64,000 nt of DNA from an uncultured Clostridia bacterium (GTDB lineage Bacteria > Bacillota > Clostridia > UMGS1883 > UMGS1540), in NCBI GenBank assembly GCA_937966555.1, contig CALCLY010000031.1, positions 1,869 through 65,868 on the forward strand, given 5' to 3'. The first letter of the stretch is position 1. Each line of letters begins with the position of its first letter. The position numbers were made by a program, and so were the translations under genes. The notes beneath the pieces are model-generated. The model searched no databases. It had not been told where the DNA came from and saw only the letters and a list, made by a program, of their open reading frames with translations. Below are positions 6,827 to 25,182 of the stretch, piece after piece.

Positions 6827-6884
6827 TTGACAAATGTAGCTGACCATGCTATACTGATTACAGTAGCTACGAGTGTAATTACAC
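6827..6884 (+). promoter_or_regulatory. sigma-A promoter (TTGACA 6827-6832, 17-nt spacer, TATACT 6850-6855) plus BlaI/MecI/CopY-type operator TTACAGTAGCTACGAGTGTAATTACAC (6858-6884)
   Basis: Consensus hexamers sit ~70 nt upstream of blaI. The perfect palindrome GTGTAATTACAC and a TACA-N12-TGTA dyad contain the TACA/TGTA half-sites recognised by the penicillinase-repressor family. Confidence 0.5.
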
Positions 6885-6922
6885 TTAACAAAAATCTTAT
6901 GACGCATAAGGGGGCATTTTAT

Positions 6923-7294
6923 ATGTCAAATGCAAAACACACAATTACCGATTCGGAATACAGTATTATGAAAATTTTGTGGAACTCGGAAAAGAAAATG
7001 ACGGTATCCGATGTTGTGGACGCCCTTGACGGAAACGACTGGACGCCGTCCACTGTTTCAACATTTTTGCAGAGATTATTAAAAAAGAATGTTGTATCCT
7101 GCGAAAAAAAGGGGAACACAAATTTATATTATCCGATTTTGAAACAAAATGATTATGATATGTCTGAGACCGAGAGCTTTTTATCAAAAATATATAAAGG
7201 CTCAGTTAAAAATCTTGTTGCGGCACTCTATGAGAACAAAAAGCTTTCCAAAGAGGATATGTCGGAGCTTAAAAGTATGTTTGATTTGGAGTGA
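6923..7294 (+). CDS. BlaI/MecI/CopY-family transcriptional repressor (123 aa)
   Basis: Winged-helix penicillinase-repressor N-terminus (ITDSEYSIMKILWNSEKKMTVSDVVDAL...WTPSTVSTFLQRLLKKNVV). RBS AAGGGGG before ATG 6923. Confidence 0.85.
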   Translation: MSNAKHTITDSEYSIMKILWNSEKKMTVSDVVDALDGNDWTPSTVSTFLQRLLKKNVVSCEKKGNTNLYYPILKQNDYDMSETESFLSKIYKGSVKNLVAALYENKKLSKEDMSELKSMFDLE

Positions 7295-8136
7295 TAAATT
7301 TGTACGATGTTTTCAAAACAGTGCTTATATTAAGCCTGTTCGGTTTTGGGATAACAGCGCTGCTTTTACTCTTAAAGCCCATTACCGCAAAGAGGCTGCC
7401 GGCAAGGTGGCAATACTGCGTATGGATTACCCTGCTGATTTCTATGGTCTTTCCGGCATACAAGCTGATACCGAAAAAAGAGGCTCAAAAACTCTCGATA
7501 GTGCCGCAAAATCAAACGGTGCAGACCACAGTGCAGCCGCATGAGGAAACCCATCCCGATACGGTTGTAACTTATGACACACCGATTGAATATCGAGAGG
7601 TTAATCTATCGCCCAAAATTTCAATACGGCTTTTTGACCTTATCGCATATATATGGGGCGCAGGCGTTCTCATATTTTTGCTTGTTGTCATTATAAGCTA
7701 TTTCAGGTTTTTGTGCCGCAAAAGCAAAAATTCGGTTAAGATTTCCGACAACAAGATATTTTCGGAAGTAAAAAAGGAACTTAAAATTAAAAAGCATATC
7801 AGACTGAAAGCGTCATCGGATATAGGCTCGCCTATACTTGTCGGCGTATTGTTTCCGACAGTATATATTCCCTGCCGGGAAATTCCCGATGACAATATGC
7901 GTATGGTGCTTTTGCACGAGCTGACGCATTACAAGCGAAAGGATTTGCTCATAAAATGGTTTGCGGTTTTGGTAAATGCCGTTCACTGGTTCAATCCGCT
8001 TTGCTATCTTGCCTGTGCAAATCTGAGTGAAGCGTGCGAGGTATCATGCGATATGTCGGTGACAAAAAATATGTCCGAAGATGAACAAAAGCTGTATATG
8101 CAGACAATTCTTAATTTAGCCACGGAAAGGAGCTAA
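7291..8136 (+). CDS. BlaR1/MecR1-like M56 zinc metalloprotease, membrane part only (281 aa; no C-terminal penicillin-binding sensor domain)
   Basis: Several TM helices plus the HEXXH motif (HELTHYKRKDL) of peptidase family M56. GTG start overlaps the blaI stop (GTGA). The protein ends ~300 aa short of a full BlaR1. Confidence 0.8.
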   Translation: MINLYDVFKTVLILSLFGFGITALLLLLKPITAKRLPARWQYCVWITLLISMVFPAYKLIPKKEAQKLSIVPQNQTVQTTVQPHEETHPDTVVTYDTPIEYREVNLSPKISIRLFDLIAYIWGAGVLIFLLVVIISYFRFLCRKSKNSVKISDNKIFSEVKKELKIKKHIRLKASSDIGSPILVGVLFPTVYIPCREIPDDNMRMVLLHELTHYKRKDLLIKWFAVLVNAVHWFNPLCYLACANLSEACEVSCDMSVTKNMSEDEQKLYMQTILNLATERS

Positions 8137-8140
8137 TAAA

Positions 8141-9322
8141 ATGCTTGAAAATTTATACACAACTAAAATGAGTGCAAATAAAAAGACCTTGCAGAACAGG
8201 TTTACAAAGATCCGCAGGAAAAGCGGACGGATTTCAAAAATTATGGCGGCGGTGATGTCCTGCGCCATTGCCGTAACAATGCTTGGCGGAGCTATCGTTA
8301 TGGCGGCGGTCGGCTCGGACGGCTTGGAGCATTTTACAAAAAACGAAATTTATTATAAGGACGGAGTTAAATTTTCCGTAAATGTTTCGGGTAAAAATGT
8401 GCCCGCATGGGTTTATGAAGATGTTGCGGGCGATGACGGTAAAATTGATGTTACCGTAAACCGCTATCAAACCAGAGATTTAAAGGGAGTTGTAAGCAAC
8501 GACCAGGTTATAGAGCTTTCGGGAGACAAGGGTCAAATAAAGCTCGCATCACAAAGTTATTCAATGGCTTATAAGCAAAGCCGCGGAGTTAACGCTCCCG
8601 ATTACTTGTATAACTATCCGTATTACTATTCGGAAATCGATTTTATTGAGTTTAACAACACAGGCTATGCACCCGAATCAATGGCAATAACGGCTTTAAC
8701 AGATAAAAAAGAACCAAAATACAGACGAATTGCAGTTTATTTTGCTTTCGATGATAACAAACAAATGCAAACCGTATTTATAAACTTCGGTATAGCCGAC
8801 AAGAATGACAATCCAGCAAATATGTCATTCGATGGCATGCAGCCTGTTGACGGATTAACGTACATAGGTAACTTCCTTGAAGATTATACAAAGTCTGTTT
8901 GGAATGACAATACCGATAATAATTATTATTTCACAATGTATGAGGATAACTATCAAAACAAAAAAGCAGACGGCATTGACTTTACTATTGAAAAATCGAC
9001 AACAGAAGGTATTGTTATAAACACAAATGTAACTCTTTCGCAGGCTGACCGCATTATAATAGATGTTTACAATAAAGAAGGGAGCCAGATAGCTTTCAGT
9101 CACGAAAAAGACAACACTGCTGCACCGCAATATGTCTTGACACCAGCAAAAGACAAAGTTTATTTGCATACAGGTAACGGTGAACCGCCGAAGCTTATAA
9201 GCGAAACAGCCATTCCCGAAAATCAATTTGTAAGCGGTGAAAAATACCGTGTGTGCATTGTTGTTTTGGATAAGGATTACAATGTTATTTACCGCTGGCA
9301 AAAATATGTAACAATTCAATAA
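8141..9322 (+). CDS. Membrane-anchored exported protein of unknown function (393 aa; cytoplasmic basic N-tail, one TM helix, large extracellular domain)
   Basis: N-terminus KIRRKSGRISKIMAAVMSCAIAVTMLGGAIVMAAVG gives an anti-sigma/sensor-like topology. Starts 5 nt after the BlaR1-like stop (operon). Confidence 0.6.
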   Translation: MLENLYTTKMSANKKTLQNRFTKIRRKSGRISKIMAAVMSCAIAVTMLGGAIVMAAVGSDGLEHFTKNEIYYKDGVKFSVNVSGKNVPAWVYEDVAGDDGKIDVTVNRYQTRDLKGVVSNDQVIELSGDKGQIKLASQSYSMAYKQSRGVNAPDYLYNYPYYYSEIDFIEFNNTGYAPESMAITALTDKKEPKYRRIAVYFAFDDNKQMQTVFINFGIADKNDNPANMSFDGMQPVDGLTYIGNFLEDYTKSVWNDNTDNNYYFTMYEDNYQNKKADGIDFTIEKSTTEGIVINTNVTLSQADRIIIDVYNKEGSQIAFSHEKDNTAAPQYVLTPAKDKVYLHTGNGEPPKLISETAIPENQFVSGEKYRVCIVVLDKDYNVIYRWQKYVTIQ

Positions 9323-9336
9323 GAGGAGGTTTTAAG

Positions 9337-10113
9337 ATGAAAAAAATAATATCTGTATTATTATGCTTAATGTTATGTACAATTACGGCGTTTGCCGAAA
9401 ATAACGAAAAACCCGAGACCGTGGGCGGAAAAATCACCCTTACGCAGTTTTTGGGTGTAAGCCGCGAAGATGCCGAGAACGTGGCAATAACCGTAAACTC
9501 CGAAACAAACTATATTGACAAAAATACGTTTTATGATATAAGCGACAGCTTTATACTCACCTCTTCTTTTGAGCCGAAACAAATGGCAAAAGAAGGAATA
9601 TATATAACAATTAAAAAAACAGACGGAAGTTTTGCATATGCTTTTATTGATTTTAACGGCGGTGTTGACAGATACGGCGCTTTAATGAGCAGAAACCCGT
9701 ACGCACTGTATATGGCTGACGACCTTTCGAAAATAAGCGCAATAACATCACAAGGAAAGCCGCAAATTACCGTAAATGAAAACCTTGATATAAGAGTAAA
9801 CGGGCAAAAAGCCGAATTCACACTCTCTCCGTTTATAACCCAAGAAGGCAGAACACTCGTTCCGGCGCGAGAAATATGCGGATATTTAAATAAAAATATA
9901 ATCTGGCTTGACTCTCCGGCACGAATTTCCGTTTCATCCGGCAGTGACATTCTTGTATGTGCAATCGGTGAAAGTGACTACAGCATTAACGGAAACTTAT
10001 ATGAAACCGATGCGGCGGCACAGCTTATTGACGGACACGCATATATTCCGCTGCGCACCCTTGCTGAGTTTTTAGGGTATAGTATCAGTTTTATTCCTTC
10101 TTCAAATTTATAA
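9337..10113 (+). CDS. Secreted protein with a C-terminal copper-amine-oxidase N-terminal-like domain
   Basis: Signal peptide MKKIISVLLCLMLCTITAFA. C-terminal repeats GRTLVPAREICGYLNKNIIW and GHAYIPLRTLAEFLGYSISF match the Cu_amine_oxidN1 'stalk' domain common in clostridial surface proteins. Confidence 0.7.
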   Translation: MKKIISVLLCLMLCTITAFAENNEKPETVGGKITLTQFLGVSREDAENVAITVNSETNYIDKNTFYDISDSFILTSSFEPKQMAKEGIYITIKKTDGSFAYAFIDFNGGVDRYGALMSRNPYALYMADDLSKISAITSQGKPQITVNENLDIRVNGQKAEFTLSPFITQEGRTLVPAREICGYLNKNIIWLDSPARISVSSGSDILVCAIGESDYSINGNLYETDAAAQLIDGHAYIPLRTLAEFLGYSISFIPSSNL

Positions 10114-10125
10114 ACCATAACATAA

Positions 10126-10155
10126 AATGGGCTGTTTAAACAGCCCATTTTTTTA
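10126..10155. terminator. Bidirectional terminator hairpin ATGGGCTGTTTAAACAGCCCAT + T-run
   Basis: Palindrome GGGCTGTTTAAACAGCCC is flanked by A/T runs between convergent genes (9337-10113 + and 10163-17134 -). The same 18-nt palindrome recurs at 35863-35880. Confidence 0.65.
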
Positions 10156-10162
10156 ATTTTTA

Positions 10163-13100
10163 CTATTTAACAATACCGAGCCAGAGAATCTTTGCTACTT
10201 GTTCTCTCAAAACAAAATTGAGAGGTTTAAGTGTTCCGTCTTCATATCCCGATACTATTTTGTTCTGCGTGAGGAAGCTTACTGCATCCACAGCGTATTC
10301 CGAAACAGAAGCGCCGTCTGAGAACGAAACATTTCCGCTGCCTTTTTCTCCTTCGAAAAATACTCTGTAAACAAGCGTCATAGCATCCTGCCTTGTTATT
10401 TTGTCGGAAAGGTTTGCGGCAATTCCCGTCTGTGTCTTGCTGCCCTGAAGCCAGCCTTTTTTATATGCCGCAGCAGCATAGGGTGCCGCCCATCCGGCAA
10501 TTGAAGACGCGTCCTCAAACATGCTTACATCGCTGTCATCAACATTTTCTCCCATAGCGGCAACAAGAAGCTTTACAAATTCTCCTCTTGTTATTTCGTT
10601 TGAAGGCTTGAAAATTTTAATTCCGTTTTCAATATAGCCGTCTGTAAGTTTTGCAAGTCTTAAGCTTCTTATGTAAAGCGAAGCCCAGTTTCCGTCTATA
10701 TCCGCAAACTCGTCTCCCATGTTCGGGTTTTCTATAACGACATATCTGCCTTCACCGACATAGCCCGCGCTTATCATTTTTCTCTGCGCGTCATAATCTC
10801 CGCCTATATACATCCACTTTCCTATGCTGTCGGCAAAATAGTATACTCCGATATTATCGGTATTTGCATTGTCTTTAACCTCAAGGTCAACAAGCATTGC
10901 AGGTGCTTCCTTAAGCGTTGCCAAAGCGACTACATCGGAACAAATCTTTCCGCCCTGAGGCAAACCTTCAAGATGTGAATTTGTTCCTGTATCCGTTCCG
11001 TGAATTAGATAGTTTTCTTCTTTTATATCACTGCCTTTTGCAAACACCGTATTTCCGCTTTTCTTTGACGTAAAGTCAATACCGGCATACATCTTGCCTG
11101 CGTCAACATCGCTGCCCTCGCCAAGCATTGAAGAAACTTTCTTTATAAGTTCTTTAACTTCCGGAGGAAGTTCCGTTGATACTGCCGATGAGCTGTGTTT
11201 GCCGCCATTGCCCTTACCGCCGCTTTCGGATTGCTCGCCGACTATTCCCGAATCATAAATATCTGTAAGCGTGGTACTTCCTACATTCCATTCCGCACTT
11301 ACGGAGAAGGAATTGTTTCCGTTCGGTATAACAACGGCTCCGCTGTTTCCGCTCTGAACGGTGAGCGCAGCTTCTGACGGGTCTGACACAAGCTTCCACT
11401 TGAGTCTGTCTTTAATAATGTCAATCCCGAGCTCTTTGCCGTTTTCGTCAACACCAACTGCCGTAAGCTCTGTTGCGGTTGTTCCCTCAGGCTTTGTACC
11501 GAGTATTTTAATACCGCTTATTTTAGATACCGCATTGTTTACAACGGTGGCAATATGAGTTGCGCTGTTTCCGTTTACATCTGTTGCAACTATCTTTATT
11601 TCATGCGAATATTTGGGCGCCAAAACTTTAATTGTTCTTTCAAAAGCAAAGTCGGGATTTGCGCCGTTTACGTTTTCAACCACTCCGCCTGCAACTTTTG
11701 TATCATCGAGATATACTTCAACACTCGTTCCTTCGTCTGTAAGGATTTTCACCGGTATTCCGACATTTGGGTCATAAAGCGATCCGTTCTGCGGATAAAG
11801 CACTTTTATGTCTGCCGGGATTGAGTCAACAGAGAATTTGCGTGTTTCAACAGTAACGTCTCCTGCCTTATTTGTAAATACAATATCCACAATATGGTCG
11901 CCGTCCGAAAGATTGAACGCCGCATAGCCGTGACCGCCCGTTGATGAATCGTTTTTCAGCACATCGCCGTACTGTTTTTCGTCAATATCAAATCTTACGC
12001 TTACCTCATCGTTCGGCTCTGCTCCCATGTTTAATATATCATACTCGATAAGTATATTCGAATTTCCTATCTGAGTGTATGATACGTTTCTGTCATCGGT
12101 TTTATTCTTGGCATTGAAAGACGTGATGTTTACGTTTATCTGCGGAGGATTCGGAACAGGAACCATTACATCGGCACTCTGCACCTCGGCACTTCCGTAG
12201 TATCCGCTTCCCTCTTCCGCATTTACGGCTGTTGCTGTAACATAATATGTTTTACCGGGTTCTATAACCGATGTACTTACGGCAGCGCCGCTGCTGTCTA
12301 CCAATGTGCTCTGACCTTTGAAGTAAGTGGAAAGAGTACTCTTTCCTTCTTCCGCCGCAACATATCCGCCTATGCCTTTAAGGCACTCGCTTGTACCGTC
12401 ATCATTTCTTCTGAACACGCGGAAATTAATTCCCGTAGCGTTTTGCGGAACATAGCTTGTTACGTTAATTCTTCCGTCTCCGCCTGCTGTTGCCTGAACG
12501 GCAGGTGCAGCCAGTGTATTCGGATTGTCAAAGTGCATTTTGGCTTTGGAATACACACTTGTGTATACCGAGTCATTCAAAATTGAATCAAGCCTTACAA
12601 TATAGTCTCCGCTCGGAACATTTATTTCAATGTTTTCTCCGGAAGAAGAACCTTTTGCCATTTTTACTATGTATCCTGCATGCTCTGTTGTTGCGGTATT
12701 TCCGTTTTCATCCGTATATTCCGTCATAGCCGGATTTCCGTTTTCATCGCACGGAACAAGCAGAAGAGTTACGTCCGCCTTGTCATCGGCTGTCCATGAT
12801 GTGCTGAGCGTATTGCCCGCAATGCTTGCCGAATCAATTGAAAGTTTGGGCGTTACCGTAGGAATTGAAAGTACGGTATAGTCACTTATTTTTGCACCGT
12901 TTACACTTTCTATTTTCCAGTTGCCGTCCATGAGCATGTTGTTTGAAACATTTACGTATACATACTTTTTAACAGTTCCCGTTTCGGCATCTGTTTTTTC
13001 ACTGAGAAGCATATTGGCTCCTGCAGCATTGTTCTCTTCCTGAGTTTTATCATAATCATATATAACGGTTCCGTATTCCGTACCGTCAGGCTTTGTTACT

Positions 13101-16100
13101 TTAAGCTCGGGCGCTGTGTCACCGTCATAATAAACTCTGTAAACAACATCTTTTCCGGCCATGAGCACCGTATCAACATTATTTTCGAAACTTACAGAAT
13201 TTAAAAGTGTCTGCGGTTTTGCATATGATGAACCGACAGCTCTGTCAACGCTTGTTGCAACAACGCTTGCGCCCTGACCTATACCCATATACTGAATATT
13301 TCCGTTTTCATCCTGTATCTCACGAACCTCAAGGAAACTCATTGTATGCGATGTTGTATCCGAGTTTTCTCCCAAAGCCTCCGTATCAAGGTCTATATCC
13401 TCAAGCTCGTCAACTTCACTTCCCGAAAGCAGTCTGAAATTGCCTTTGTCATAATAATATACAAATCCGCCGCTGAAAATAAATACCTTTATTCCGCCCG
13501 CTATAAACTTATTTGTTATAGCAAGTGTAATGCCTGCGAGTCTTCCGAGTCCCGGAACATTAAGCGAACCGTCAATCTTTCCGAGGAATGCAAATTCCGG
13601 AGTTGTTGTAAACGCCAGTGTTACTCCGCCTTTAACCACTCCCGAGAACAAATCAACCGTGCCCGACAGCCGCATTGTAAACCCTGTTGTCCAATCCATT
13701 TCGGCTTTTGCAATAAACTTTATCTGGTCAAAGTTTGCGGGCGACCCCGTTACGGCAAAGGAAAGTCCGTTTCCTGAGACAGACATATCTCCCTGCAGAT
13801 ACATAACGTTCAATATGTCTATAAGCGCCATAACGCTTACCGTTACGGGCGGTCTTCCTTCTCCCTGATAATTAATGGAGCTTGCCAGATCCGAAATACC
13901 TCCGCCGAGACCGCGTAAATTAAGCGTGCCCGGAACAATCGGAATTACAAATCCTTTTACCTCAAGATATATGCTGTCAAGGCATATCTTACCGTTGTTC
14001 ATTTCGGCAAGGCTCATGCGGAAAGCCGTACTTAAAGGTCCGATGCCGATACCAAGGTCCACGCCGGCATGGAATTCATATGTGTTAAACGAAGCGCCCA
14101 GACTGAACGCCGAAAGTCCGCCCTTGTTCTTGCTTCTTGCATTATCCGCATTCTGATTCTGACCTGCAGCGGTTGTTGCCGCACTGCTTCTTGAAGAAAC
14201 TATCTGAGATGATGTTGGGTTAGCCGCCGCAGCGCCGTTGCTTATCGTGGAATTGTTATTCTGTTTTCCGCCTGCCGGGAACACGGATTTTGGCAATTCC
14301 AGATTAACCGTTGCCGCAACTCCGACAAAGCCGGTTTTTATGTGTGTTGCGTCATTTTTATCCTCATGTTCACCGAAAAGCACGGAATCTATCGAAACAC
14401 CGAGCGAACCGCCGTCTCCGAAAGCTCCTGCTTTTTTTGTGGCGGAATTTCCGTCTTTAAAGACATTTTTCTTGCTTGCGTTATTGTTGTTATTATTGTT
14501 GTTATTGTTGTTATTGTTGTTATTGTTATTATTGCCGCTGTTGTTATTATTGTTGTTTAGATTGTTATTGCGATTATTGTTTTCATTTGAATTTGAAGCG
14601 GTATTCCTGGTTCCCGCAGAAGGTGTTCCCGTTGATGTTCCGGAAGATTCGCCCTGTGAGCCTTCGGACGAACTGTCACCCTTGCTCATGCCGAGCGGGA
14701 ATGAAACCTGACCGCTGAAATCTATCGTATATCTGCCATCCTGACAACCCAAAACACCGTAGTTTAAGTCAAATATGAAACCGCCGAGGTTCTGCAAAAG
14801 CCATCCTCCGCCGAGAAGCTGAAGCTTCGGTGCTTCAACACTGAAGTCATTTGTATCATACGAAAACAGTGCGTCCATGGGAAGTCTTATCATGAACTTA
14901 TGTTTCCATATTGTTGAAGCGCCTATAACGCTGAGATCACCGTCACCTTCAAGCTTCATAACATTAGGCAACCCGTTTGAGCCAAACTCCGCAACCATTC
15001 GAAGCGGAGTGTTTGAATCATAGTAAAGAATCCTGTTTACTTTGATTCCGTCGGAGCCGCCCACGGTTTCAAATCCCAGAAGATCGGGATTATTTTTCTC
15101 TGCACTTGTGCTTATGCAAAATCCTTTTTCTTTATTTGCACTTGCAGCGTCTTTTCCGTCTTTATAAAGAATTTTAAATATGCCTCTTGCCTCCATCAGC
15201 ATTTCGCCGTCTTCGCCGAGAGACTCTTTATATTCCTGAAACTGCTGTTCCACAGACTTTAAGCCGCTTTCACTCATTCCCGTATCAACCGTGAAAAGGC
15301 GCATATCATAATCGCGCTTTTTCGATGTTCTTGCAACAACGGCTATTGAATATCCGCGGTTTTTGTATTTTACGTCATTTGTTGAAGTTATGCGCTGCGA
15401 AGAATCGGAGAATACTATATCCTTCATACCCTCAAGGTTATTCTTGAATTTAATGGTAAGCGTATATTCGCCGAGTCTTCCCTCCATATCAACCAAAAGA
15501 CCGAGCTGCCTGTTTTCGGTGTCAACGGAGCAGCTGAAGCTGTCTATATTTATGACTTCTCCGCTTACAACATCCGTTAAAAACGCTGTCCAGTTTGATT
15601 TGTCCGACAATGCCTTAAAGTTTTGGCCGTAACCCATAACGCTGAAATACGAAGTGCCTTCGTAATATATGGTTGTGGGCTCTATCCCCGTAAACGCGAT
15701 GCTGACTTTTGAATCGCCAAGAGGAGGCATTGTTATAACTTTTGAGCCCACAGTCGGAACGGGAGTTGCGTCACCCGTCAGAGAAAACGTTATTTTCCTT
15801 GTATCTATTGACGTGCGAAGCGTATATCCTTCTTTTGGTTCATAAACAATGTCGGGAGCATCCGCGTCTTTGTTATTCTTATTTTTTTCATATACAGGGC
15901 GCGCTTTAAGCTTAACGGGAATATTTCTCCTGATTTCGCCGCGGTTTATATTTCCTATGCTCAAAACTTCCGATTCTTCCGTTTCGTCCGCCGTCCATAT
16001 TGCCGGCTCCTGTACCATATTAAGCTCGCTGTCCAAAACCTTATCCTGGAAGATCATCTGCAGCTTGCCGTTTATTATGGGACTTGACTCCGCATCGGAA

Positions 16101-17134
16101 TTATCAACCGTAACATACAGTGTTATTTCACCGTCATTTGCATAACCGTCTTTTTTCTCATTTGCTTTCAAAAGCTCTTTCTGAGTAACGGTCATTACAC
16201 AGTGCTCGGGAGAAGACTCCATTCCTCCGAGTTCTCCGACACCGTACATTGTATCAACCGACAGCGTCTCGCCGGCCTCAACCACTTCGGTATCGTATAT
16301 TATGGATACCGCACTGTCCGGATAAAAATACTCGTTATAATAATCGTCAAAATTCATACCCGGGTTCACGGTATAATCCCAAAGTGTATTTGCAAGGTTA
16401 TACCAGTGTGCCATCTGAACCTTATCGGGTGTACGGCGCATAGACTTATGCTGCAAAAGACCGTACGCGGTTGTTGTTGAGAAATTTACACTGTCGGAAA
16501 CGGAATACCATTCGGGTATACTGTCACCTGTAAATTCCGTCTCGCGCGAAATTGCGGTTGTTCCCCCGTTTTTGAAAAACGAACCTGCATCGTTATCCGC
16601 TGTCTTTGTATCAAGCAGAATTCTTATGCCAACCCATACGGCAGAGGAATTTGAATTTGTGTATGAATACTGAATATTTGCATAACCGCCGGATTCGCTT
16701 GCCGTATTTCCGTTTATTATTATATTTTGTGTAACTTCAACACCTTCTACCGCCCATTTTGAAACAATGGCGCGTCTTTCGGAGTCAAGCTGCACAACCT
16801 GCGGAGCTGCGGTAACCTTTCCCGCAGAACTTCCGTAAATATAATCGTGCGTTTCCGCATTAGCCAATCCGGCATTTTTTATGATACGTACTGTTGTATA
16901 TGAAGTTGCAAATTGATCGTCTCCGTCATACAAAAGCGGCTTATCATCGTCAAATCGTTTAGCCGGGATACCCTTTTTTGTATTGATGCCAAAGGAGGAT
17001 CCGTCAGCTTTTGATACAACTTCTATATAGTTGTTGTCAATTTTCAACTCATTATCCGCCAGCGCCGTGCACGGGATAATTCCCGCGCACAGAAGCACTG
17101 CCAGAAGCAAGGATATTATTTTTTTCATGTGCAT
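10163..17134 (-). CDS. Giant cell-surface protein (2323 aa): signal peptide, multiple Ig-like/beta-rich regions, Ser/Gly/Asn low-complexity linker, uncharacterised ~700-aa beta-rich region, three C-terminal SLH domains
   Basis: N-terminus MHMKKIISLLLAVLLCAGIIPCTALA. C-terminal ~190 aa hold three SLH repeats (ITRGEFVKLLVAAMG..., ITRQDAMTLVYRVF..., LREQVAKILWLGIV). RBS AAGGAGGT lies 11 nt after the upstream gene stop, i.e. translational coupling. Confidence 0.85.
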   Translation of the reverse strand: MHMKKIISLLLAVLLCAGIIPCTALADNELKIDNNYIEVVSKADGSSFGINTKKGIPAKRFDDDKPLLYDGDDQFATSYTTVRIIKNAGLANAETHDYIYGSSAGKVTAAPQVVQLDSERRAIVSKWAVEGVEVTQNIIINGNTASESGGYANIQYSYTNSNSSAVWVGIRILLDTKTADNDAGSFFKNGGTTAISRETEFTGDSIPEWYSVSDSVNFSTTTAYGLLQHKSMRRTPDKVQMAHWYNLANTLWDYTVNPGMNFDDYYNEYFYPDSAVSIIYDTEVVEAGETLSVDTMYGVGELGGMESSPEHCVMTVTQKELLKANEKKDGYANDGEITLYVTVDNSDAESSPIINGKLQMIFQDKVLDSELNMVQEPAIWTADETEESEVLSIGNINRGEIRRNIPVKLKARPVYEKNKNNKDADAPDIVYEPKEGYTLRTSIDTRKITFSLTGDATPVPTVGSKVITMPPLGDSKVSIAFTGIEPTTIYYEGTSYFSVMGYGQNFKALSDKSNWTAFLTDVVSGEVINIDSFSCSVDTENRQLGLLVDMEGRLGEYTLTIKFKNNLEGMKDIVFSDSSQRITSTNDVKYKNRGYSIAVVARTSKKRDYDMRLFTVDTGMSESGLKSVEQQFQEYKESLGEDGEMLMEARGIFKILYKDGKDAASANKEKGFCISTSAEKNNPDLLGFETVGGSDGIKVNRILYYDSNTPLRMVAEFGSNGLPNVMKLEGDGDLSVIGASTIWKHKFMIRLPMDALFSYDTNDFSVEAPKLQLLGGGWLLQNLGGFIFDLNYGVLGCQDGRYTIDFSGQVSFPLGMSKGDSSSEGSQGESSGTSTGTPSAGTRNTASNSNENNNRNNNLNNNNNNSGNNNNNNNNNNNNNNNNNNASKKNVFKDGNSATKKAGAFGDGGSLGVSIDSVLFGEHEDKNDATHIKTGFVGVAATVNLELPKSVFPAGGKQNNNSTISNGAAAANPTSSQIVSSRSSAATTAAGQNQNADNARSKNKGGLSAFSLGASFNTYEFHAGVDLGIGIGPLSTAFRMSLAEMNNGKICLDSIYLEVKGFVIPIVPGTLNLRGLGGGISDLASSINYQGEGRPPVTVSVMALIDILNVMYLQGDMSVSGNGLSFAVTGSPANFDQIKFIAKAEMDWTTGFTMRLSGTVDLFSGVVKGGVTLAFTTTPEFAFLGKIDGSLNVPGLGRLAGITLAITNKFIAGGIKVFIFSGGFVYYYDKGNFRLLSGSEVDELEDIDLDTEALGENSDTTSHTMSFLEVREIQDENGNIQYMGIGQGASVVATSVDRAVGSSYAKPQTLLNSVSFENNVDTVLMAGKDVVYRVYYDGDTAPELKVTKPDGTEYGTVIYDYDKTQEENNAAGANMLLSEKTDAETGTVKKYVYVNVSNNMLMDGNWKIESVNGAKISDYTVLSIPTVTPKLSIDSASIAGNTLSTSWTADDKADVTLLLVPCDENGNPAMTEYTDENGNTATTEHAGYIVKMAKGSSSGENIEINVPSGDYIVRLDSILNDSVYTSVYSKAKMHFDNPNTLAAPAVQATAGGDGRINVTSYVPQNATGINFRVFRRNDDGTSECLKGIGGYVAAEEGKSTLSTYFKGQSTLVDSSGAAVSTSVIEPGKTYYVTATAVNAEEGSGYYGSAEVQSADVMVPVPNPPQINVNITSFNAKNKTDDRNVSYTQIGNSNILIEYDILNMGAEPNDEVSVRFDIDEKQYGDVLKNDSSTGGHGYAAFNLSDGDHIVDIVFTNKAGDVTVETRKFSVDSIPADIKVLYPQNGSLYDPNVGIPVKILTDEGTSVEVYLDDTKVAGGVVENVNGANPDFAFERTIKVLAPKYSHEIKIVATDVNGNSATHIATVVNNAVSKISGIKILGTKPEGTTATELTAVGVDENGKELGIDIIKDRLKWKLVSDPSEAALTVQSGNSGAVVIPNGNNSFSVSAEWNVGSTTLTDIYDSGIVGEQSESGGKGNGGKHSSSAVSTELPPEVKELIKKVSSMLGEGSDVDAGKMYAGIDFTSKKSGNTVFAKGSDIKEENYLIHGTDTGTNSHLEGLPQGGKICSDVVALATLKEAPAMLVDLEVKDNANTDNIGVYYFADSIGKWMYIGGDYDAQRKMISAGYVGEGRYVVIENPNMGDEFADIDGNWASLYIRSLRLAKLTDGYIENGIKIFKPSNEITRGEFVKLLVAAMGENVDDSDVSMFEDASSIAGWAAPYAAAAYKKGWLQGSKTQTGIAANLSDKITRQDAMTLVYRVFFEGEKGSGNVSFSDGASVSEYAVDAVSFLTQNKIVSGYEDGTLKPLNFVLREQVAKILWLGIVK
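14473..14585. repeat. Imperfect (GTT/ATT)n trinucleotide microsatellite encoding a poly-Asn tract (NNNNNNSGNNNNNNNNNNNNNNNNN) in the giant SLH protein
   Basis: ~110 nt of gttattgttgttattgtt... on the + strand equals AAC/AAT codons on the - strand. The repeat is in frame, so slippage would change linker length, not reading frame. Confidence 0.6.
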
Positions 17135-17145
17135 TTACCTCCTTC

Positions 17146-20100
17146 TCAGCCTGCAATAAATACATACATTATCTGTGTGTTTCTGTTTTCGGTCTGCATA
17201 AACAGAGTATACATACCGGCTTCTTTCTGTTCAAGCTTAATTTTGGCATTCGGCAGTACAAGCGATTTCATCGAATGTCCTTTAAGCTGTGCTCCGTTGT
17301 AATAACCCTTTACAAAAGCATAAGAAACTTTTTTGCCCGATTTTTCGGCATTTACAAATGTTAAATCAAGCGAATCTGTAATCCAGTAATTTGTCTGCTC
17401 GCCAGGTATCAGAATATTTCCGTTTATTGCCGCAAATACATCGTCCTCACCTATAACCTGAATGTTTCTTGTTATAACCGTTTTATTGCCGGCATTATCC
17501 GTACCCGTTACGGTTACGGCATATCTTCCCGGAACATTTGCGTCAAACGTACCGTAATCTATTTCAGGTGTTTGGCTTACCGCTCCGGACTCCGCGTCAG
17601 AAACCGTCATTTTTTCAAATTCATTCTTATTGAATTCGCCTTTATTCACATAAACATCGCGTGTCCCTTCGTATGTTATCTCAGGAGGCGTAACGTCAAC
17701 ATATTTTACTTCGATATTGTATGTTGCGCTAATACCTGCGTCATTTGTAAGGGCAAACGAATATGTTCCGTTTTCAGTGGGCGTAAAGGTTATTTTGTCG
17801 GATTTTGCGCCGTTCTGAACAATATAAGACCTGATGCCCGATGCTCTCTGTGTTTCGGCAGCTACAGTAATTTCGGGCGGAACATTTGTCCATGATTCGG
17901 GATTTCCGCTGTGCGTAGCCTTCGGCGGCTCTGTGTCAATACACGAAACGCTTGCCGTAAGTGAATTTACATTGCCGGCATCATCCGCAAACTTAATGAG
18001 GTAATTTCCGTTTGATTTAACCGTAATGTATTTTCCGTGTTCGGCGCCCGCAACAGTTATGGTGTCGTTTTCGCCGCCGCTTAAAATATCGCCTGCAGAT
18101 TTTGCGGAAAGAACTATTGTTGCATAGCCGTATGCAGTTTCAAGTGTTCCGCTATCCGTTACAGCCTTGTTAGGTTCAACTGTGTAATCAAGCTCCGGAA
18201 CCGTTTTATCAATATTGTCAACAGACACAGACAACCATTCGGTTTCGTTTCCGCTTGTATCACGGAATTTAAAGAGTGTGATACCGTTATTCTCAAAGCT
18301 GTATGTCACATATGTTGAAAATGCATTTGAATATCCTTTTATAACTGCTCCGTTTTGGTCTGCAACCATATAGTCCGCAAGCTTTGTCAGTGTAATATTA
18401 GCTGTTACATCCGCATTTGTTTTGCGCGTCATATCGGTGCTGTAGGAAATGTACGCCGCAGGAGGTGTTCTGTCTAAATCCTTAACCTCAAGAGAAACCT
18501 CAACCGTATTGCCGACAGCGTCAGCAAATACAAGTTTTGCAAAACCGTTATTTGCAAATTTCAGCGAAGCCGTAAGGTTTTCTCCGCTTCTGTCTATGAA
18601 TACATCGCTTGCGGCAAAATCTTTTCCGCTGCTGTCGCGCCCTGTAACCGATACAAATTTCAGTTCTGAAGCGTTTGTTATGTTATCATTCACGTTAACA
18701 AGCGCCGTAACACTGTCTTTTTCAAGCGGCGTAGCGGAGTTATATATGTAATCCGCATCGGCTTTCGGCGCCTCATTGTCAAACTTGATACCGCTTATCG
18801 TAAGTGTGCTGCGATTGCCCGCTTTTGATGTGTAATCGTAGTGGTATTCGCCGTTATCGGATATTCCGATAATGTCAAGAAGCTTTCCTTCCTTATCATA
18901 TATATATGCTTCTGCTTTTCCTCTGAGGTTTCCTCCGATATACACATAGTTAAATGTGCTGTAAGCATAATCATTCATATCGGCAGTCAAATCAAATTTA
19001 TCAGTTATATCCTCGGTTGCATTCATGATCTTTGCTGTTATCTGAGCAGGTGTTTTATCTATATAATCCACGTTAACCGGAATTTCCTTAACATTTCCCG
19101 CCAAATCGTAAAGCTTAAAAATAACCCAGCCGTTATCATAGAATGTATAATCCGTTTTGCCTTCCATGCGTGTGTACATATCAATACACTCAACTTTAAT
19201 TTCCGATGAAGATGATTTATCATCTTCAATATCGAATATGTTTACCGTAACATCGGTGTTTACAGGCGAACCGTCTGCCGGCTTTTGAGGCGAGTAAATA
19301 ACCTTGCACTCGGGGGCTTCCCTGTCAAAAAAGTCATAAACATATGTCTGCATGCCCTCCGCCTTTTTGTCCGGATCACTTGCGGCTGTCGGGTTAATTA
19401 CCAAAAATTCAAAGCTGCCGTTTTCCGTTACGGTAAGTGTAAACTGTTTGTAAAGCGGCTTTGTACCAGTGTATTCCGCCGGTGCCGTAACTTCTGTACC
19501 CGAAGCTCCTTCGGGCAAATCCGCCAAATAATATTCGTCATATATGCCGCCTGTCGGTACAGTAACGGTTATCTCGGCGCTGTCAGCATTTGTATATTTT
19601 TCAGTAAACTCGCTTCCCATTACATTTATTTTGATATTGTCCTCGGGAATGCTCGGCAATGTAGGATCAATCCATGTAATGTCCACGGGAAGTTCGGTTG
19701 TCCTTCCAAGCTCGTCAAGCAGACTGTAGCGCGCATTTATATTATTTCTGAACTTAAGTATATGATTTGTTGTAAATCCGCTGCCGTCAATGCTCATATA
19801 GCTCTTCATGTATTTCTGCGCTATAAGCTCTGCCGCACTATGTCTTATTGCACAGAGCACACTTGCCGCCGATGGAACTGCGTTTATTTCAGCCAGTGTC
19901 AGTGCATTATCGTACAAATCATTATACGGATTCTCATAAAGCACATAATCTGCAAAGTACGGACGAAGTGCCTCGTTAATTTTATTAAGATCCGCTTCCT
20001 CCTGACCCGCAAACGGCGACTGATAAGCAGTGTCGGTCATTTTGTTCAAAAGCGTTATATCAAAATCGTCACCGAAAAATTCGTAAACTTCACTTTCGGT

Positions 20101-23100
20101 CAGCGTATCTGAGTATAGCGGGTTTCTTATAAGAAGTTTTCCGCTTTCTGCCGGAGTAAGCGAATCGGCAGAAAATTCCGAGAAAGTATAAGAATCAAAC
20201 TCTTCCGGATATGCCAGAACATTAATTCTGTAACCGTCCGCAACAGGGTATTTCGATTCTCCTTCAAAATCTCCGCCCTCTGAAGCAAGCCCTGCTCTGA
20301 GCAATGTAATAATCGCTTCCTGTTCTTCATTTGTATAATCGCCGCGAAGCGAACGCAAATCCGAATATCTCTCATATTCTGTTTCTATTTCACCGGTTTT
20401 GCCGTAATCTGCATTATAGTAACATTCGTTTATAAGATAATCATAAATATCAAGCGTCGGAACATTTGTAGTGTTATATTCAAGATAATCATCCGTTGTC
20501 GGTGAATTTTTGAACACTGCCTTTTCTTCGTCTGTAAGCTCTGTGCCTGCGTTCACCTTCTCTGTTATAGTTTTATACATTGCACAAGCTTCTTCAAAAG
20601 TAATTGTCTTTAAAGCACCTTCATATACGTATGTATATCCTTCGCTTCTCTTTTTCTGAACGCTTTCCTGCATTGCAGAAATATTATCTTCAGAATCAAC
20701 CGTATACTGAAGCAGTGTCGGTATATCGGTTTTCGCCGTCATTGTAACGCTTCCGCCGGTTGCTGTAGACGGAGTGTACGAAGAGAGCAGCTCTGCCGTA
20801 TCGTCGGATGCATTTATGGTTGCAATAAGCTTTGTCTCCACATTGCCCGCTCTGTCTCCTACTCTCACATATACATTATAAGTTCCTGTCGGCAAAGCTC
20901 CGTAAGAAAGTTTATACTGAAGTTCTTTGTCGTTTACTTCACCGGAGGACATATTGTAGCTTTCGGAAATACCGTTTGTCGGTTCAGGTTCATAACTCGG
21001 AGCCGGACTGTATGACGGAACAGGTTCCGAGCTTTCTCCTGATTTTCCTGTCTTTTCAAGCTTAGCATAAGCAAAACCCTTGCTGTCGCCAAAGTATCCG
21101 CCGTTTTCAAAACCTGTCGGATCACCGTTTTCGTCAAACGTTGTCGGTCTTGCGGAAGCTTCTTCCGTGAAGAAATCATTATCCGAAGGTTCACCCTGTG
21201 TTATTGCTGCGCTGAGCACGGTCAGAGAATCATCATCTTTTGCCGTAAACACAAACGATCCGTATTTTGCCGCACCGTTTTTGGGAATCTGAGCCGATGA
21301 GTTGAGCTGAAGTTCTGGAATGTTTCTGTCGAAACAGTTAATATCAACCTGCTTTACGGAACTTCTTCCGGCTTTATCCGAAATCGTTATTTCGACAACG
21401 CCGTTTTCGGATACTTCAATTACGGCTTTCCCCGCACGCGGATGTTCCTTTAAAGTACCGCCCGAAATGCCTATTGTTATCTCCCCGGGTGTTTCATATG
21501 CATCAGTGTTATAATTAATATCAAATGTTACGGTCTTGGCATTTGTCTTACCGGATATGTTTGCTGTATCTACATATGTCACTTCGGGCGCATATTTGTC
21601 AAGCACAAAATCAAGTGATGCCGAAGACATATTGCCCGCCATGTCATATACCTCAAACGTATAACGGTATTTCATTACACCTTTATCGTAAACCACATCA
21701 AAATCATTAACAAGCGGATTTGTTACCGTTGCCGTACATCCATTTGTTACGCGTTTTCTTTCCGTAAACTTAAAACCGTTTTTGCTGCGGACAATATCAA
21801 GCGCATCTTTTGCCTCATCGTCAAAAGCGGCGGAAATGTATTTTAAATCCGCAAAATCTTTTAATATGAATGTTCCGTCACCAAGCTGATTTATGTTTGA
21901 AGGCGCAACAGACAATGATTTTATTTCGGGTTTTGCAAAATCAACGCGCATATCATTGCTCCAGAATGTGCTCTCATGCCCGAATATGTCACGCACGGTT
22001 AATTTAATCTTTGCATTCTGCGCATTTAAATAATCTTCATTTTCGCCGAATTCTTCATTGAAGTTTATCGGCACGGTCTCGTTTATACTGTTTAAAACAT
22101 ATGTTTTGGCAAGTTTGTCTTTAATAAAGAGCTCTGCCTTCGGCGCTCTTGAAGATGAAAAATCAATATTGCCGTTCTTGGCATAAGCTTTGTAAGCGGC
22201 GCCGTCATCATCAAGGATGAATTTAACTTCATAGTTTGAATTCACACCGTCTCTTTTTCCGGTCGTTTCTATTGAAGCTGTGGGCGCTTGTGTATCAAAG
22301 AATACATTTATTGTATAATCCTGTACCTCTCCCTCCGGCTGAAGAATCACACGTGCAAAAAGTGTATATTCTCCCGAAAAACTTCCGCCAAATTGGTTTT
22401 GAATCTCTTCGGAAGCAAAGTCAACGCTGTTTAAGTTTGACGGTGTTAACGTTACGCTCTGCGTTGCATTGTTCAAAGTAGCGGTTGAACCCTTCACCCA
22501 GCCGTAACTTATATCAAACTTTACATCACCGTTTTGAGGAATCTTTACACCTTCTAGTTTTATGCTGTGTTTGTCGGAAAGGGGTGAATAATCGTCAACA
22601 AACCGCAAGTCAAAATCTCTGTCAGCCGTTACAAAATCTTCTGATTTAACGGGCTTTTTTGTTTTATTGTAAAATTTATCATAGAAAGTTGCAGTAACAT
22701 TCCATTTGTTATAACTTCCTTTGTCAGCCATGATGTTTATAACATGATCTGAAGCATCTGTTTTTCTGTTTTGATCCGCTCCGCTTGTAACATCATGAAG
22801 AACATATGTAATAAGAGGAAGAACTGTTCCTTCTCCGGGGTCGGTCACGTCATATTTCACCGCAACGTTTCCGCCGCTTCTTTCGGTGCTCACACTGTTT
22901 ATTACGGGTCCTGTGCTGTCTATGTAGGCTCTTATATCTTTCTTATCCGCATTTGTAAGAGTATTTCCGGCAGCATCATTTATCGAATACTCAATATAAA
23001 CCGGAAGATTTTCGGGGTAATCCGAAATCATTGTAATATCGGAAAGTGAAACTTTCGCCGTATTGCCGCTTGACACGGTTCCGAGCGTAAGTGTTTCCGC

Positions 23101-25050: not shown

Positions 25051-25114
25051 TGCAATTCCTCCTTTTGGTTTCATTTTTTTTGCATCCGTTGTGTTGTAAT
25101 TGATTATTTGTTCA

Positions 25115-25144
25115 ATTATATCACAAAAACCACTCCTCGTCAAG
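25115..25144 (-). promoter_or_regulatory. Consensus sigma-A promoter for the giant-protein operon (TTGACG at 25144-25139, 18-nt spacer, TATAAT at 25120-25115)
   Basis: Read on the - strand: TTGACGaggagtggtttttgtgaTATAAT, ~55 nt upstream of the start codon at 25050. Confidence 0.5.
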
Positions 25145-25182
25145 CTGTTCAACAAATTATTTCATATTTTGGAATATATACA

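Follow-up and report, generated by a model that had tools for sequence, protein, structure and literature searches.

Organization of the locus

The 64-kb window analysed here (64,000 nt of contig CALCLY010000031.1, from an uncultured Clostridia bacterium) contains a compact operon that encodes a BlaI-like repressor, a short M56 zinc metalloprotease, a membrane protein of 393 amino acids (aa) that we call X, and a secreted protein with a Cu_amine_oxidN1 domain. The features of the locus, numbered by window position, are listed below; TM stands for transmembrane, UTR for untranslated region, and a slash between two residues marks a scissile bond.

6827-6855, + strand: sigma-70-like promoter, with the -35 hexamer TTGACA at 6827-6832, a 17-nt spacer and the -10 hexamer TATACT at 6850-6855, preceded by a TG extension
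6835-6848, + strand: remnant of operator 1, TGTAGCTGACCATG, in the promoter spacer (family consensus TGTAGCTACAnnTG)
6863-6884, + strand: operator 2, GTAGCTACGAGTGTAATTACAC, 22 nt, which holds the core TACR-AG-TGTA and the palindrome GTGTAATTACAC
6896-6914, + strand: 5'UTR hairpin CTTATG-ACG-CATAAG, read from the sequence; its 3' arm overlaps AAGGGGG (6908-6914), the Shine-Dalgarno sequence of blaI
6923-7294, + strand: BlaI/MecI/CopY-family winged-helix repressor, 123 aa (PF03965, E=6.5e-33, covering residues 8-120 of 123)
7291/7300-8136, + strand: short M56 zinc metalloprotease, 281 aa from GTG 7291 or 278 aa from TTG 7300
8141-9322, + strand: X, 393 aa; N-terminal tail rich in Lys/Arg, then one hydrophobic helix, then a large C-terminal part
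8141-8239, + strand: X residues 1-33, cytoplasmic tail MLENLYTTK/MSANKKTLQNRFTKIRRKSGRISK, aligned to the BlaR1 autocleavage loop and helix alpha9
8165-8170, + strand: predicted scissile bond K9/M10 of X; R20 (8198-8200) is the predicted Arg294 counterpart (both from the alignment to 8EXP/8EXS)
8240-8311, + strand: X residues 34-57, single TM helix, counterpart of the last BlaR1 TM helix (alpha10)
8312-9322, + strand: X residues 58-393, ectodomain, beta-rich, about three subdomains, the last (~279-391) FN3/Ig-like
9337-10113, + strand: secreted Cu_amine_oxidN1 protein, 258 aa, with a signal peptide and the Cu_amine_oxidN1 domain at residues 154-252
10124-10151, + strand: intrinsic terminator, a 12-bp stem followed by a T run, at the end of the operon

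All four open reading frames (ORFs) that a first-pass annotation had placed in this region are present where it had put them, on the + strand and tightly packed, and their coordinates together with the domain searches bear out its four-gene description, apart from small corrections. The operon holds blaI, the M56 gene, the X gene and the gene of the Cu_amine_oxidN1 protein only; no beta-lactamase or PBP2a gene is found in it. The repressor is, as had been proposed, a full member of the BlaI/MecI type by its PF03965 match, and the fourth protein is indeed secreted, with both a signal peptide and the Cu_amine_oxidN1 domain.

The protease matches the M56 family PF05569 with E=8e-48 and carries the HELTH motif at 7915-7929. 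Three N-terminal hydrophobic helices are followed by a cytoplasmic gluzincin domain, and the chain stops just past the helix aligned to alpha8 of Staphylococcus aureus BlaR1. Only positions 10-272 of the 585 in the NCBIfam model blaR1_generic are matched, with 138 bits against a cut-off of 400. Pfam and NCBIfam searches gave no transpeptidase or penicillin-binding protein (PBP) domain, PF00905 or other, in any of the four operon proteins. The PF05569 match and the absence of a PBP domain confirm the description of the protein as a truncated M56 protease that keeps HEXXH and lacks the penicillin-binding sensor.

The boundaries of the M56 gene differ slightly from those first given. The GTG codon at 7291 does overlap the repressor stop, as had been observed, but its use as a start is uncertain, because gene callers on identical metagenome contigs begin the gene at TTG 7300, which has GGAG 8 nt upstream; TTG 7300, giving 278 aa, is more probably the start. 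The gap between the M56 and X genes is 4 nt (TAA taaa ATG) and not 5 nt, and the ribosome-binding site of X, GGAAAGGAG, lies within the last M56 codons (…GAA AGG AGC TAA, window 8113-8136). The C-terminal sequence …L[AV]xERS is kept in the closest relatives of the protease, and more distant short M56 proteins end earlier (L045, …DLVE).

Evidence for the proposed split receptor

In BlaR1, residues 271-289 form an autocleavage loop between alpha8 and the domain-swapped helix alpha9, with the scissile bond S283/F284, L280 in the S4 and F284 in the S1' subsite, and a bulky and hydrophobic residue preferred at P1' (PMC9834060). The loop fills the catalytic cleft whether cleaved or uncleaved and must exit before BlaI is cut; Arg294, carried by the swapped helix alpha9, is the partner of Asp246 and contributes to the active site, and alpha10 is the last TM helix (PMC9834060). 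The short M56 protein of the window ends before these elements: the autocleavage loop, the arginine helix and the last TM helix are missing from it, and their counterparts are residues 1-57 of X.

A scan of 1.84 billion representative proteins with X returned 153 matches, five of which are proteins of 650-765 aa in which X residues ~6-392 align to the C-terminal half. Four of them (P0137, P0139, P0151 and P0210) consist of a full M56 domain and then the X ectodomain, and the fifth (P0183) has the order M56, Cu_amine_oxidN1, X ectodomain; the N-terminal PF05569 domain is complete in all five (positions 3-296 of 296). In P0137 the part aligned to X residues 6-392 is 288-677 (E=2.8e-52), in P0139 it is 285-669, and the alignment of X with the fused proteins runs unbroken across the point at which the window genes are split. 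Over 277 aa, the window M56 shares 38% identity with the M56 part of P0139.

The same continuity is seen in the domain model and in the structural template. PF05569 covers positions 3-269 of 296 in the M56 protein alone (163.5 bits) and 3-295 in the concatenation of M56 and X (169.5 bits). The concatenated chain is colinear with residues 4-315 of BlaR1 (8EXP), with a single one-residue gap at the junction; the hydrophobic helix of X aligns at the last BlaR1 helix, the alignment reaching BlaR1 ~300-315. The BlaR1 numbering is fixed by the F284A entry 8EXS, which differs from 8EXP at exactly one aligned column. The break between the genes falls upstream of the residue aligned to the self-cleavage site of BlaR1, by about 9 residues. 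The residues correspond as follows:

Window M56 H209, E210 and H213: BlaR1 H201, E202 and H205
Window M56 E250: BlaR1 E242
Window M56 D254: BlaR1 D246
Window M56 Y269: BlaR1 Y261
Window M56 I273: BlaR1 I265
X Y6: BlaR1 L280
X K9/M10: BlaR1 S283/F284
X R20: BlaR1 R294

The M56 residues of this list (H209, E210, H213, E250, D254, Y269 and I273) are invariant in 59/59 short M56 proteins of related loci. These proteins terminate 5-21 residues past I273, the window protein 8 residues past it.

The N-terminal tail of X is shared far more widely than its ectodomain. About 100 representative clusters (at most 50% identical overall) start with M[LF]E[NK]xYTTKMSxxKKxLQxRFxKIRSKxG[RK]xSK, continue with a TM helix and then have unrelated C-terminal parts. 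In these clusters T8 is conserved in 100%, R20 in 99%, T7 and F21 in 97%, M10 in 96% and S11 in 94%; Y6 is found in 85% and Phe in the rest (Y/F6 100%). The motif is near-invariant also in the 113 tail-bearing proteins encoded by the related loci described below; over both sets, R20 is conserved in 99-100%.

These alignments argue strongly that X corresponds to the C-terminal half of an M56 receptor. The first-pass annotation had suggested that the extracellular domain might be supplied to the truncated protease in trans, and this idea is supported by the fused homologues, by the continuity of the domain and by the conserved gene order.

The X ectodomain and the fourth protein

X has no Pfam or NCBIfam family; a CdiI match (E=0.009, under the cut-off) was rejected as noise. 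The positive-inside rule gives an N-in/C-out orientation, and the layout originally described, with a basic cytoplasmic tail, one TM helix and a large extracellular domain, holds. The ectodomain was modeled with AlphaFold2 from a 36-sequence alignment, which stayed this shallow because a profile search for distant relatives of X yielded just one new subfamily. The model has a mean predicted local distance difference test (pLDDT) score of 79.4 and a predicted template modelling score (pTM) of 0.77, and residues 60-393 are mostly above 85 (the single-sequence prediction, with a pLDDT of 45, was uninformative).

In a Foldseek search against the Protein Data Bank (PDB), X gave FN3/Ig-like matches only, over the C-terminal ~115 residues (for example 7Y8I_D, with a target-normalised TM-score of 0.68 and a root-mean-square deviation of 3.7 Å), and the whole-chain TM-scores were below 0.2. 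No PBP or beta-lactamase fold was found among the PDB structures with this model, and a family profile search of the PDB sequences gave no relative of X. A PBP-like sensor was rejected, as neither such a domain (Pfam, NCBIfam) nor such a fold (Foldseek) is present. The ectodomain is beta-rich, with an FN3/Ig-like end, and matches no housekeeping family; that no PBP or beta-lactamase fold or domain is detectable supports the proposal that the input is not a beta-lactam but something else.

In the fourth protein a conserved N-domain of ~115 residues (~22-136) lies between the signal peptide and the Cu_amine_oxidN1 domain. This N-domain follows an X-ectodomain-type gene in 18/25 loci, versus 2/41 for the other sensor types. 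The C-terminal part of the homologues is SLH in 10 of 18 and Cu_amine_oxidN1 in the other 8, and the family profile gave SLH matches only among the PDB sequences. The fourth protein appears to be a partner of the X ectodomain that is associated with the wall or surface, because its N-domain co-occurs with X ectodomains and its homologues end in SLH or Cu_amine_oxidN1 domains; whether it would serve as ligand, co-receptor or output is speculative.

Related loci

Two X homologues (51-54% identity) are found in quite different neighbourhoods, both directly after BlaI and an M56 protein of 273-275 aa. With the tail alignment as query, 185,579 species genomes gave 88 matches; 76 loci, in ~70 assemblies, were kept, and all their ORFs were searched with the four proteins of the window. 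Two contigs are filed as Roseburia faecis and a few records carry only the title uncultured Firmicutes or 'bacterium'; the others are genome bins of uncultured Clostridia, Oscillospiraceae or 'Ruminococcus', and one record is Candidatus Ornithomonoglobus. Among the sample sources that the record titles name are the guts of goat, sheep, deer and rabbit as well as human gut datasets. Several assemblies carry two loci, and the identical X protein is present on 9 independent metagenome contigs in the same gene order.

Sixty loci extend 1.4 kb or more upstream of their first tail-bearing gene and were taken as informative. In 57 of them BlaI (~123 aa) and a short M56 protein (mostly 272-287 aa) are encoded directly upstream of the X-type gene or genes, so the association of M56 and X, on whose conservation the first-pass annotation had made its interpretation depend, is kept across genomes. 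The distance from the M56 stop to the X start is between -31 and +39 nt in all loci but one. Thirty-nine loci have one tail-bearing gene, 29 have two, 5 have three and 3 have four; in L027, BlaI and M56 are followed by genes of 288, 503, 369 and 345 aa. The ectodomains of the 113 tail-bearing proteins are of the following types:

Cu_amine_oxidN1: 49 of 113
X type (no Pfam family): ~36 of 113
Peptidase_M23: 16 of 113
DUF4829: 7 of 113
DUF4825: 1 of 113
Big_14: 1 of 113

Two examples depart from the common arrangement. L048:4925-6086 is an orphan tail-bearing gene of the Cu_amine_oxidN1 type with its own promoter and both operators; no BlaI or M56 gene was found within 5 kb of it, and its bin (JAGBHE01) also contains the complete locus L031. 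At L059:4436-6149, BlaI with a dual operator is followed directly by an X-type gene, in a bin (CALXWJ01) that is also home to the complete locus L052. Both fit sensor subunits that would act in trans on a protease encoded elsewhere.

In a further locus (L040:59-2334), a pair of BlaI and a 630-aa M56-Cu_amine_oxidN1 fusion stands immediately upstream of a split BlaI-M56-X-X-partner locus, so fused and split systems coexist side by side.

Promoter, operators and repressor

The promoter matches the consensus at 11 of 12 positions, and the same promoter is kept in all 53 family loci whose blaI upstream regions were aligned on the -35 hexamer. The consensus of this alignment reads TTGACA-aa-TGTAGCTACA-nn-TGnTATACT, N5-8, (A/T)GTAGCTACAAGTGTAATTACAC, and each of its two operator copies holds the classic BlaI/MecI/CopY core TACA-nn-TGTA. 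Copy 1 sits in the promoter spacer and extends into the -10 hexamer, and copy 2 spans ~+1 to +22 of the transcript. This dual TACAnnTGTA-type operator is kept in 53/53 of the promoters compared. At the position of operator 1, TGTAGCTACA is found in ~40/53 loci; the copy is degenerate (TGTAGCTGAC) in the subclade of the window, where the window and ~12 close relatives have TGTAGCTGAnC. Operator 2 differs from the family consensus GTAGCTACAAGTGTAATTACAC by a single mismatch, TACG, which is common to several relatives.

The 22-nt conserved operator at 6863-6884 includes TACGAGTGTA (corresponding family consensus TACAAGTGTA), and the palindrome GTGTAATTACAC, at 6873-6884, is its 3' portion. The autoregulatory dyad that had been proposed here is conserved in all 53 promoters and stands; its spacing is N11 and not TACA-N12-TGTA, and its extent was underestimated, the operator being a 22-nt element accompanied by a second, degenerate copy between the hexamers. 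The 22-nt sequence occurs once in the 64-kb window, against 0 occurrences expected by chance, and a search for further operator copies in the window found none. Since this operator is seen only once, with none expected, and the gene arrangement recurs in dozens of species-level genomes, the pattern is not a matter of chance. Autoregulation of blaI through the predicted operators is well supported, because they are conserved.

Residues 1-120 of the repressor align to the PDB structures of MecI (1SD6/1OKR) and BlaI (1SD4/1XSD). The alignment is gap-free near the cleavage site, so N101/F102 of BlaI corresponds to A101/L102 of the window protein (7223-7228), where the repressor is predicted to be cut. 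The canonical Asn101/Phe102 site, with its near-invariant Phe at P1', is not present in the window repressor, and a hydrophobic P1' is retained; Leu102 is invariant in 52/52 family repressors. On the P' side the repressor site (NLVAA/LYENKK) reads L-Y-E-N-K-K, which resembles M-S-A-N-K-K in the tail of X, and this similarity would fit competition of the repressor and the tail for one cleft.

Public gene calls on identical contigs give a 192-aa BlaI from TTG 6716, a start that is almost certainly wrong because the frame would run through its own promoter and operators. The 5'UTR hairpin in front of blaI is found again in roughly half of the 53 related promoters, in variants that stay self-complementary (e.g. 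L018, L015), and may be a translational or mRNA-stability element.

The terminator of the operon is shared with a convergent gene for a 2323-aa SLH protein, one of two very large predicted surface proteins encoded at 10163-25155 on the - strand, a pair that converges on the operon. The SLH domain of the 2323-aa protein is C-terminal, and the protein also contains a long poly-Asn tract; the other, of 2669 aa, has a sub-threshold match to Big_13 (bacterial Ig-like domain) only. No operator was found upstream of either gene within the 64-kb window.

Proposed mechanism and alternative explanations

We consider it probable that the operon is an autoregulated regulated-proteolysis switch of the BlaI/BlaR type, with a receptor divided between two genes at the site where BlaR1 cleaves itself. 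This interpretation builds on the gene order, the fused homologues, the continuity of the domain and the conservation of the tail, the operators and the catalytic residues; from these we infer the formation of an M56-X complex, the placement of the tail in the cleft, both cleavage sites, the kind of signal and the role of the fourth protein. The short M56 protein would be a membrane-embedded zinc-protease core, with three TM helices and the gluzincin domain up to alpha8. X would supply the substrate-like tail Y6-T7-T8-K9/M10 (aligned to the P4-P1' residues L280-S283/F284 of BlaR1), the alpha9 helix with Arg20, the Arg294 counterpart that would complete the active site, and the last TM helix with the extracellular sensor domain. 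In the membrane the two proteins would form a complex, probably a 2+2 one that resembles the domain-swapped dimer of BlaR1, and the tail of X would lie in the protease cleft as an autoinhibitory substrate or pseudosubstrate, possibly clipped at K9/M10.

An extracellular cue, probably related to the cell envelope, would act on the X ectodomain, possibly via the co-conserved, wall-anchored fourth protein, and displace the tail from the cleft. The freed protease would then cut the BlaI-like repressor at A101/L102, and the cut repressor would leave the two promoter-overlapping TACAnnTGTA-type operators, so that the operon is derepressed. In the relatives, one protease core would serve one to four tandem sensors and orphan sensors encoded elsewhere. 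An extension of this proposal is a plug-in system, in which a catalytically incomplete M56 core is completed and gated by interchangeable sensors, up to four in tandem plus orphans, that dock through an arginine-donating pseudo-substrate tail; we hold it tentatively, with doubt slightly outweighing belief. If it were true, a single repressor would integrate several different cell-envelope signals, and covalent continuity of sensor and protease would be dispensable for BlaR-type transmembrane signalling.

Several observations weigh against the split receptor or parts of it. The tail profile on its own did not retrieve BlaR1 in a search of the PDB, and hhalign of the tail alone against BlaR1 198-315 gave the same register (M10 at F284, R20 at R294) with E=0.1, which is not significant; confidence in the residue-level mapping of K9/M10 and R20, an alignment result, is moderate for this reason. 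In the AlphaFold2 monomer model of X, the tail and the TM helix have a pLDDT below 50, and the ectodomain fold points to no ligand among the Foldseek matches in the PDB. The aligned P1' residue of the repressor is Leu, versus a nearly invariant Phe in characterised BlaI proteins, so its cleavage site is putative. The 10-kb L059 locus contains no M56 gene. Finally, the catalytic HxxxD and HxH motifs are kept in 15/16 of the M23-type subunits (e.g. L001:5356-5979, L027:8566-9600); these subunits may be active peptidoglycan hydrolases tethered to the protease core, and some X-type proteins may be enzymes or clients, instead of or besides sensors.

The intact M23 motifs lead to another explanation, in which the X-type proteins are clients or effectors of the protease, and the tail is a recognition or cleavage tag by which envelope proteins (M23 hydrolases, Cu_amine_oxidN1 proteins, X) are processed, anchored or degraded, BlaI cleavage being under some other control or dependent on how much client is there to compete. 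It would account for the placement of X-type genes, the L048 orphan included, under a BlaI operator like output genes, and for the presence of up to four such genes in one operon, and there are known examples (CenR, mycobacterial BlaR, PvmS) of BlaR proteins that function with no large ectodomain. We regard it as unlikely. Ectodomains of the M23, DUF4825, Cu_amine_oxidN1 and X types are also found fused to M56 as the receptor's own C-terminal domain, and the tail-bearing protein provides the Arg294 counterpart and the last TM helix, both absent from the short M56 protein, which makes X a structural part of the enzyme and not a mere substrate.

The atypical BlaR proteins without an extracellular sensor, which are widespread and at least partly functional, suggest in turn that the short M56 protein and BlaI could be a complete sensor-less pair of the mycobacterial, Pseudomonas or CenIR type, with X and the fourth protein as co-transcribed cargo that has no physical link to it; HEXXH, E250 and D254 are all present in the window protease. 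Such BlaR proteins, however, keep the stabilising arginine and the last TM helix in one chain, and here both are on X; co-transcription would also leave unexplained the fused homologues, the Pfam continuity and the near-invariant tail on more than 100 divergent proteins, and this explanation appears quite improbable. That the split could be a decaying or mis-assembled blaR gene (by a frameshift, a nonsense mutation or a recoding site) is suggested by the M56 and X ORFs, which are 4 nt apart and in different frames, and is hardly credible: the break point and Met1 of X are conserved in the 76 loci of ~70 assemblies, the gaps between the genes range from -31 to +39 nt and differ in frame, all X-type genes have start codons of their own, the window copy also a ribosome-binding site of its own (GGAAAGGAG), X-type genes form tandem arrays of two to four, and the identical X protein recurs on the 9 independent contigs. 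Frameshift, pseudogene and programmed recoding were rejected because the gap lengths and frames vary, Met1 is conserved and tandem arrays exist.

Significance and comparison with known systems

BlaR1/MecR1 signalling underlies the beta-lactam resistance of methicillin-resistant S. aureus, and how the signal is transferred across the membrane, and for what purpose the receptor cleaves itself, is still debated. A natural two-protein receptor broken at the autocleavage loop would be a ready-made test of whether the cleaved, non-covalent state works. With the catalytic arginine and the autoinhibitory segment placed on the sensor piece, trans-complementation becomes possible, and the architecture bears on what BlaR1 autocleavage and domain swap are for. 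It also indicates that the BlaIR family, recently recognised as mostly unrelated to antibiotics, can be modular, in a version with one protease, one repressor and swappable M23, Cu_amine_oxidN1, DUF4829 and new beta-rich/FN3 sensors in abundant uncultured gut Clostridia. The motif M[LF]E[NK]xYTTKMSxxKKxLQxRFxKIR lets annotation pipelines spot these sensor subunits, which are otherwise 'hypothetical'.

In a 2026 survey of ~15,000 M56 'BlaR' proteins, only ~6% have a transpeptidase domain, and M23 and DUF4825 are listed among the C-terminal domains of single-chain M56 proteins (PMC13492132). The survey sorts architectures protein by protein, with no mention of split receptors (PMC13492132). In the literature searched, subscription journals being mostly outside the search, neither a split BlaR receptor nor multi-sensor arrays were found described, and we rate the split receptor with its multi-sensor layout as a variant of the BlaIR family previously undescribed in that literature.

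The gene order, a winged-helix repressor and then an M56 zinc protease, is shared with BlaR1/BlaI and MecR1/MecI of S. aureus (8EXP-8EXT). Also present are the catalytic residues of BlaR1 (HEXXH, E and D), a segment like the autocleavage loop with a bulky hydrophobic P1', an arginine on the next helix and a last TM helix leading to an extracellular domain, and TACAnnTGTA operators overlap the promoter as in the BlaR1/BlaI system. Unlike BlaR1 and MecR1, the window receptor would consist of two polypeptides, with the loop, the arginine and TM4 off the protease chain, and the window system has neither a penicillin-binding sensor domain nor a linked beta-lactamase or PBP2a gene. It differs from BlaR1/BlaI also in the predicted P1' residue of the repressor, Leu and not Phe, and its scores are far under the NCBIfam BlaR1 cut-offs.

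The non-canonical BlaIR systems (Clostridioides difficile CenIR, BlaIR of Mycobacterium tuberculosis and M. abscessus, Pseudomonas aeruginosa PvmSR) likewise combine an M56 protein and a BlaI-like repressor with no transpeptidase domain, and their presumed role is unrelated to beta-lactams and probably concerns the cell envelope. The published definition of the CenIR type, an M56 protein that lacks a transpeptidase domain and is encoded no more than a few genes from a BlaI-like repressor (PMC13492132), fits the window, where blaI lies directly upstream of the M56 gene, translationally coupled or 5 nt away, but the putative sensing region is on a separate gene (several in the relatives) and not at the C-terminus of the M56 protein. 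CenIR, mycobacterial BlaIR and PvmSR are single chains with the arginine helix and the last TM helix, whereas the window system puts these on X.

The fused M56-X receptors found in metagenomes (P0137, P0139, P0151, P0210 and P0183) are closer, as they share the M56 clade, the position of the LTTAMS…RRF tail motif and the ectodomain family with the window proteins; unlike these, they are single chains of 650-765 aa, and they are uncharacterised. A more distant analogy is offered by the RsgI anti-sigma factors of cellulolytic clostridia, which are single-pass sensors with a conserved cytoplasmic module, diverse extracellular domains and regulated proteolysis. Their output is a sigma factor, with a separate partner for every sensor, whereas in the family described here several sensors seem to share one protease and one repressor.

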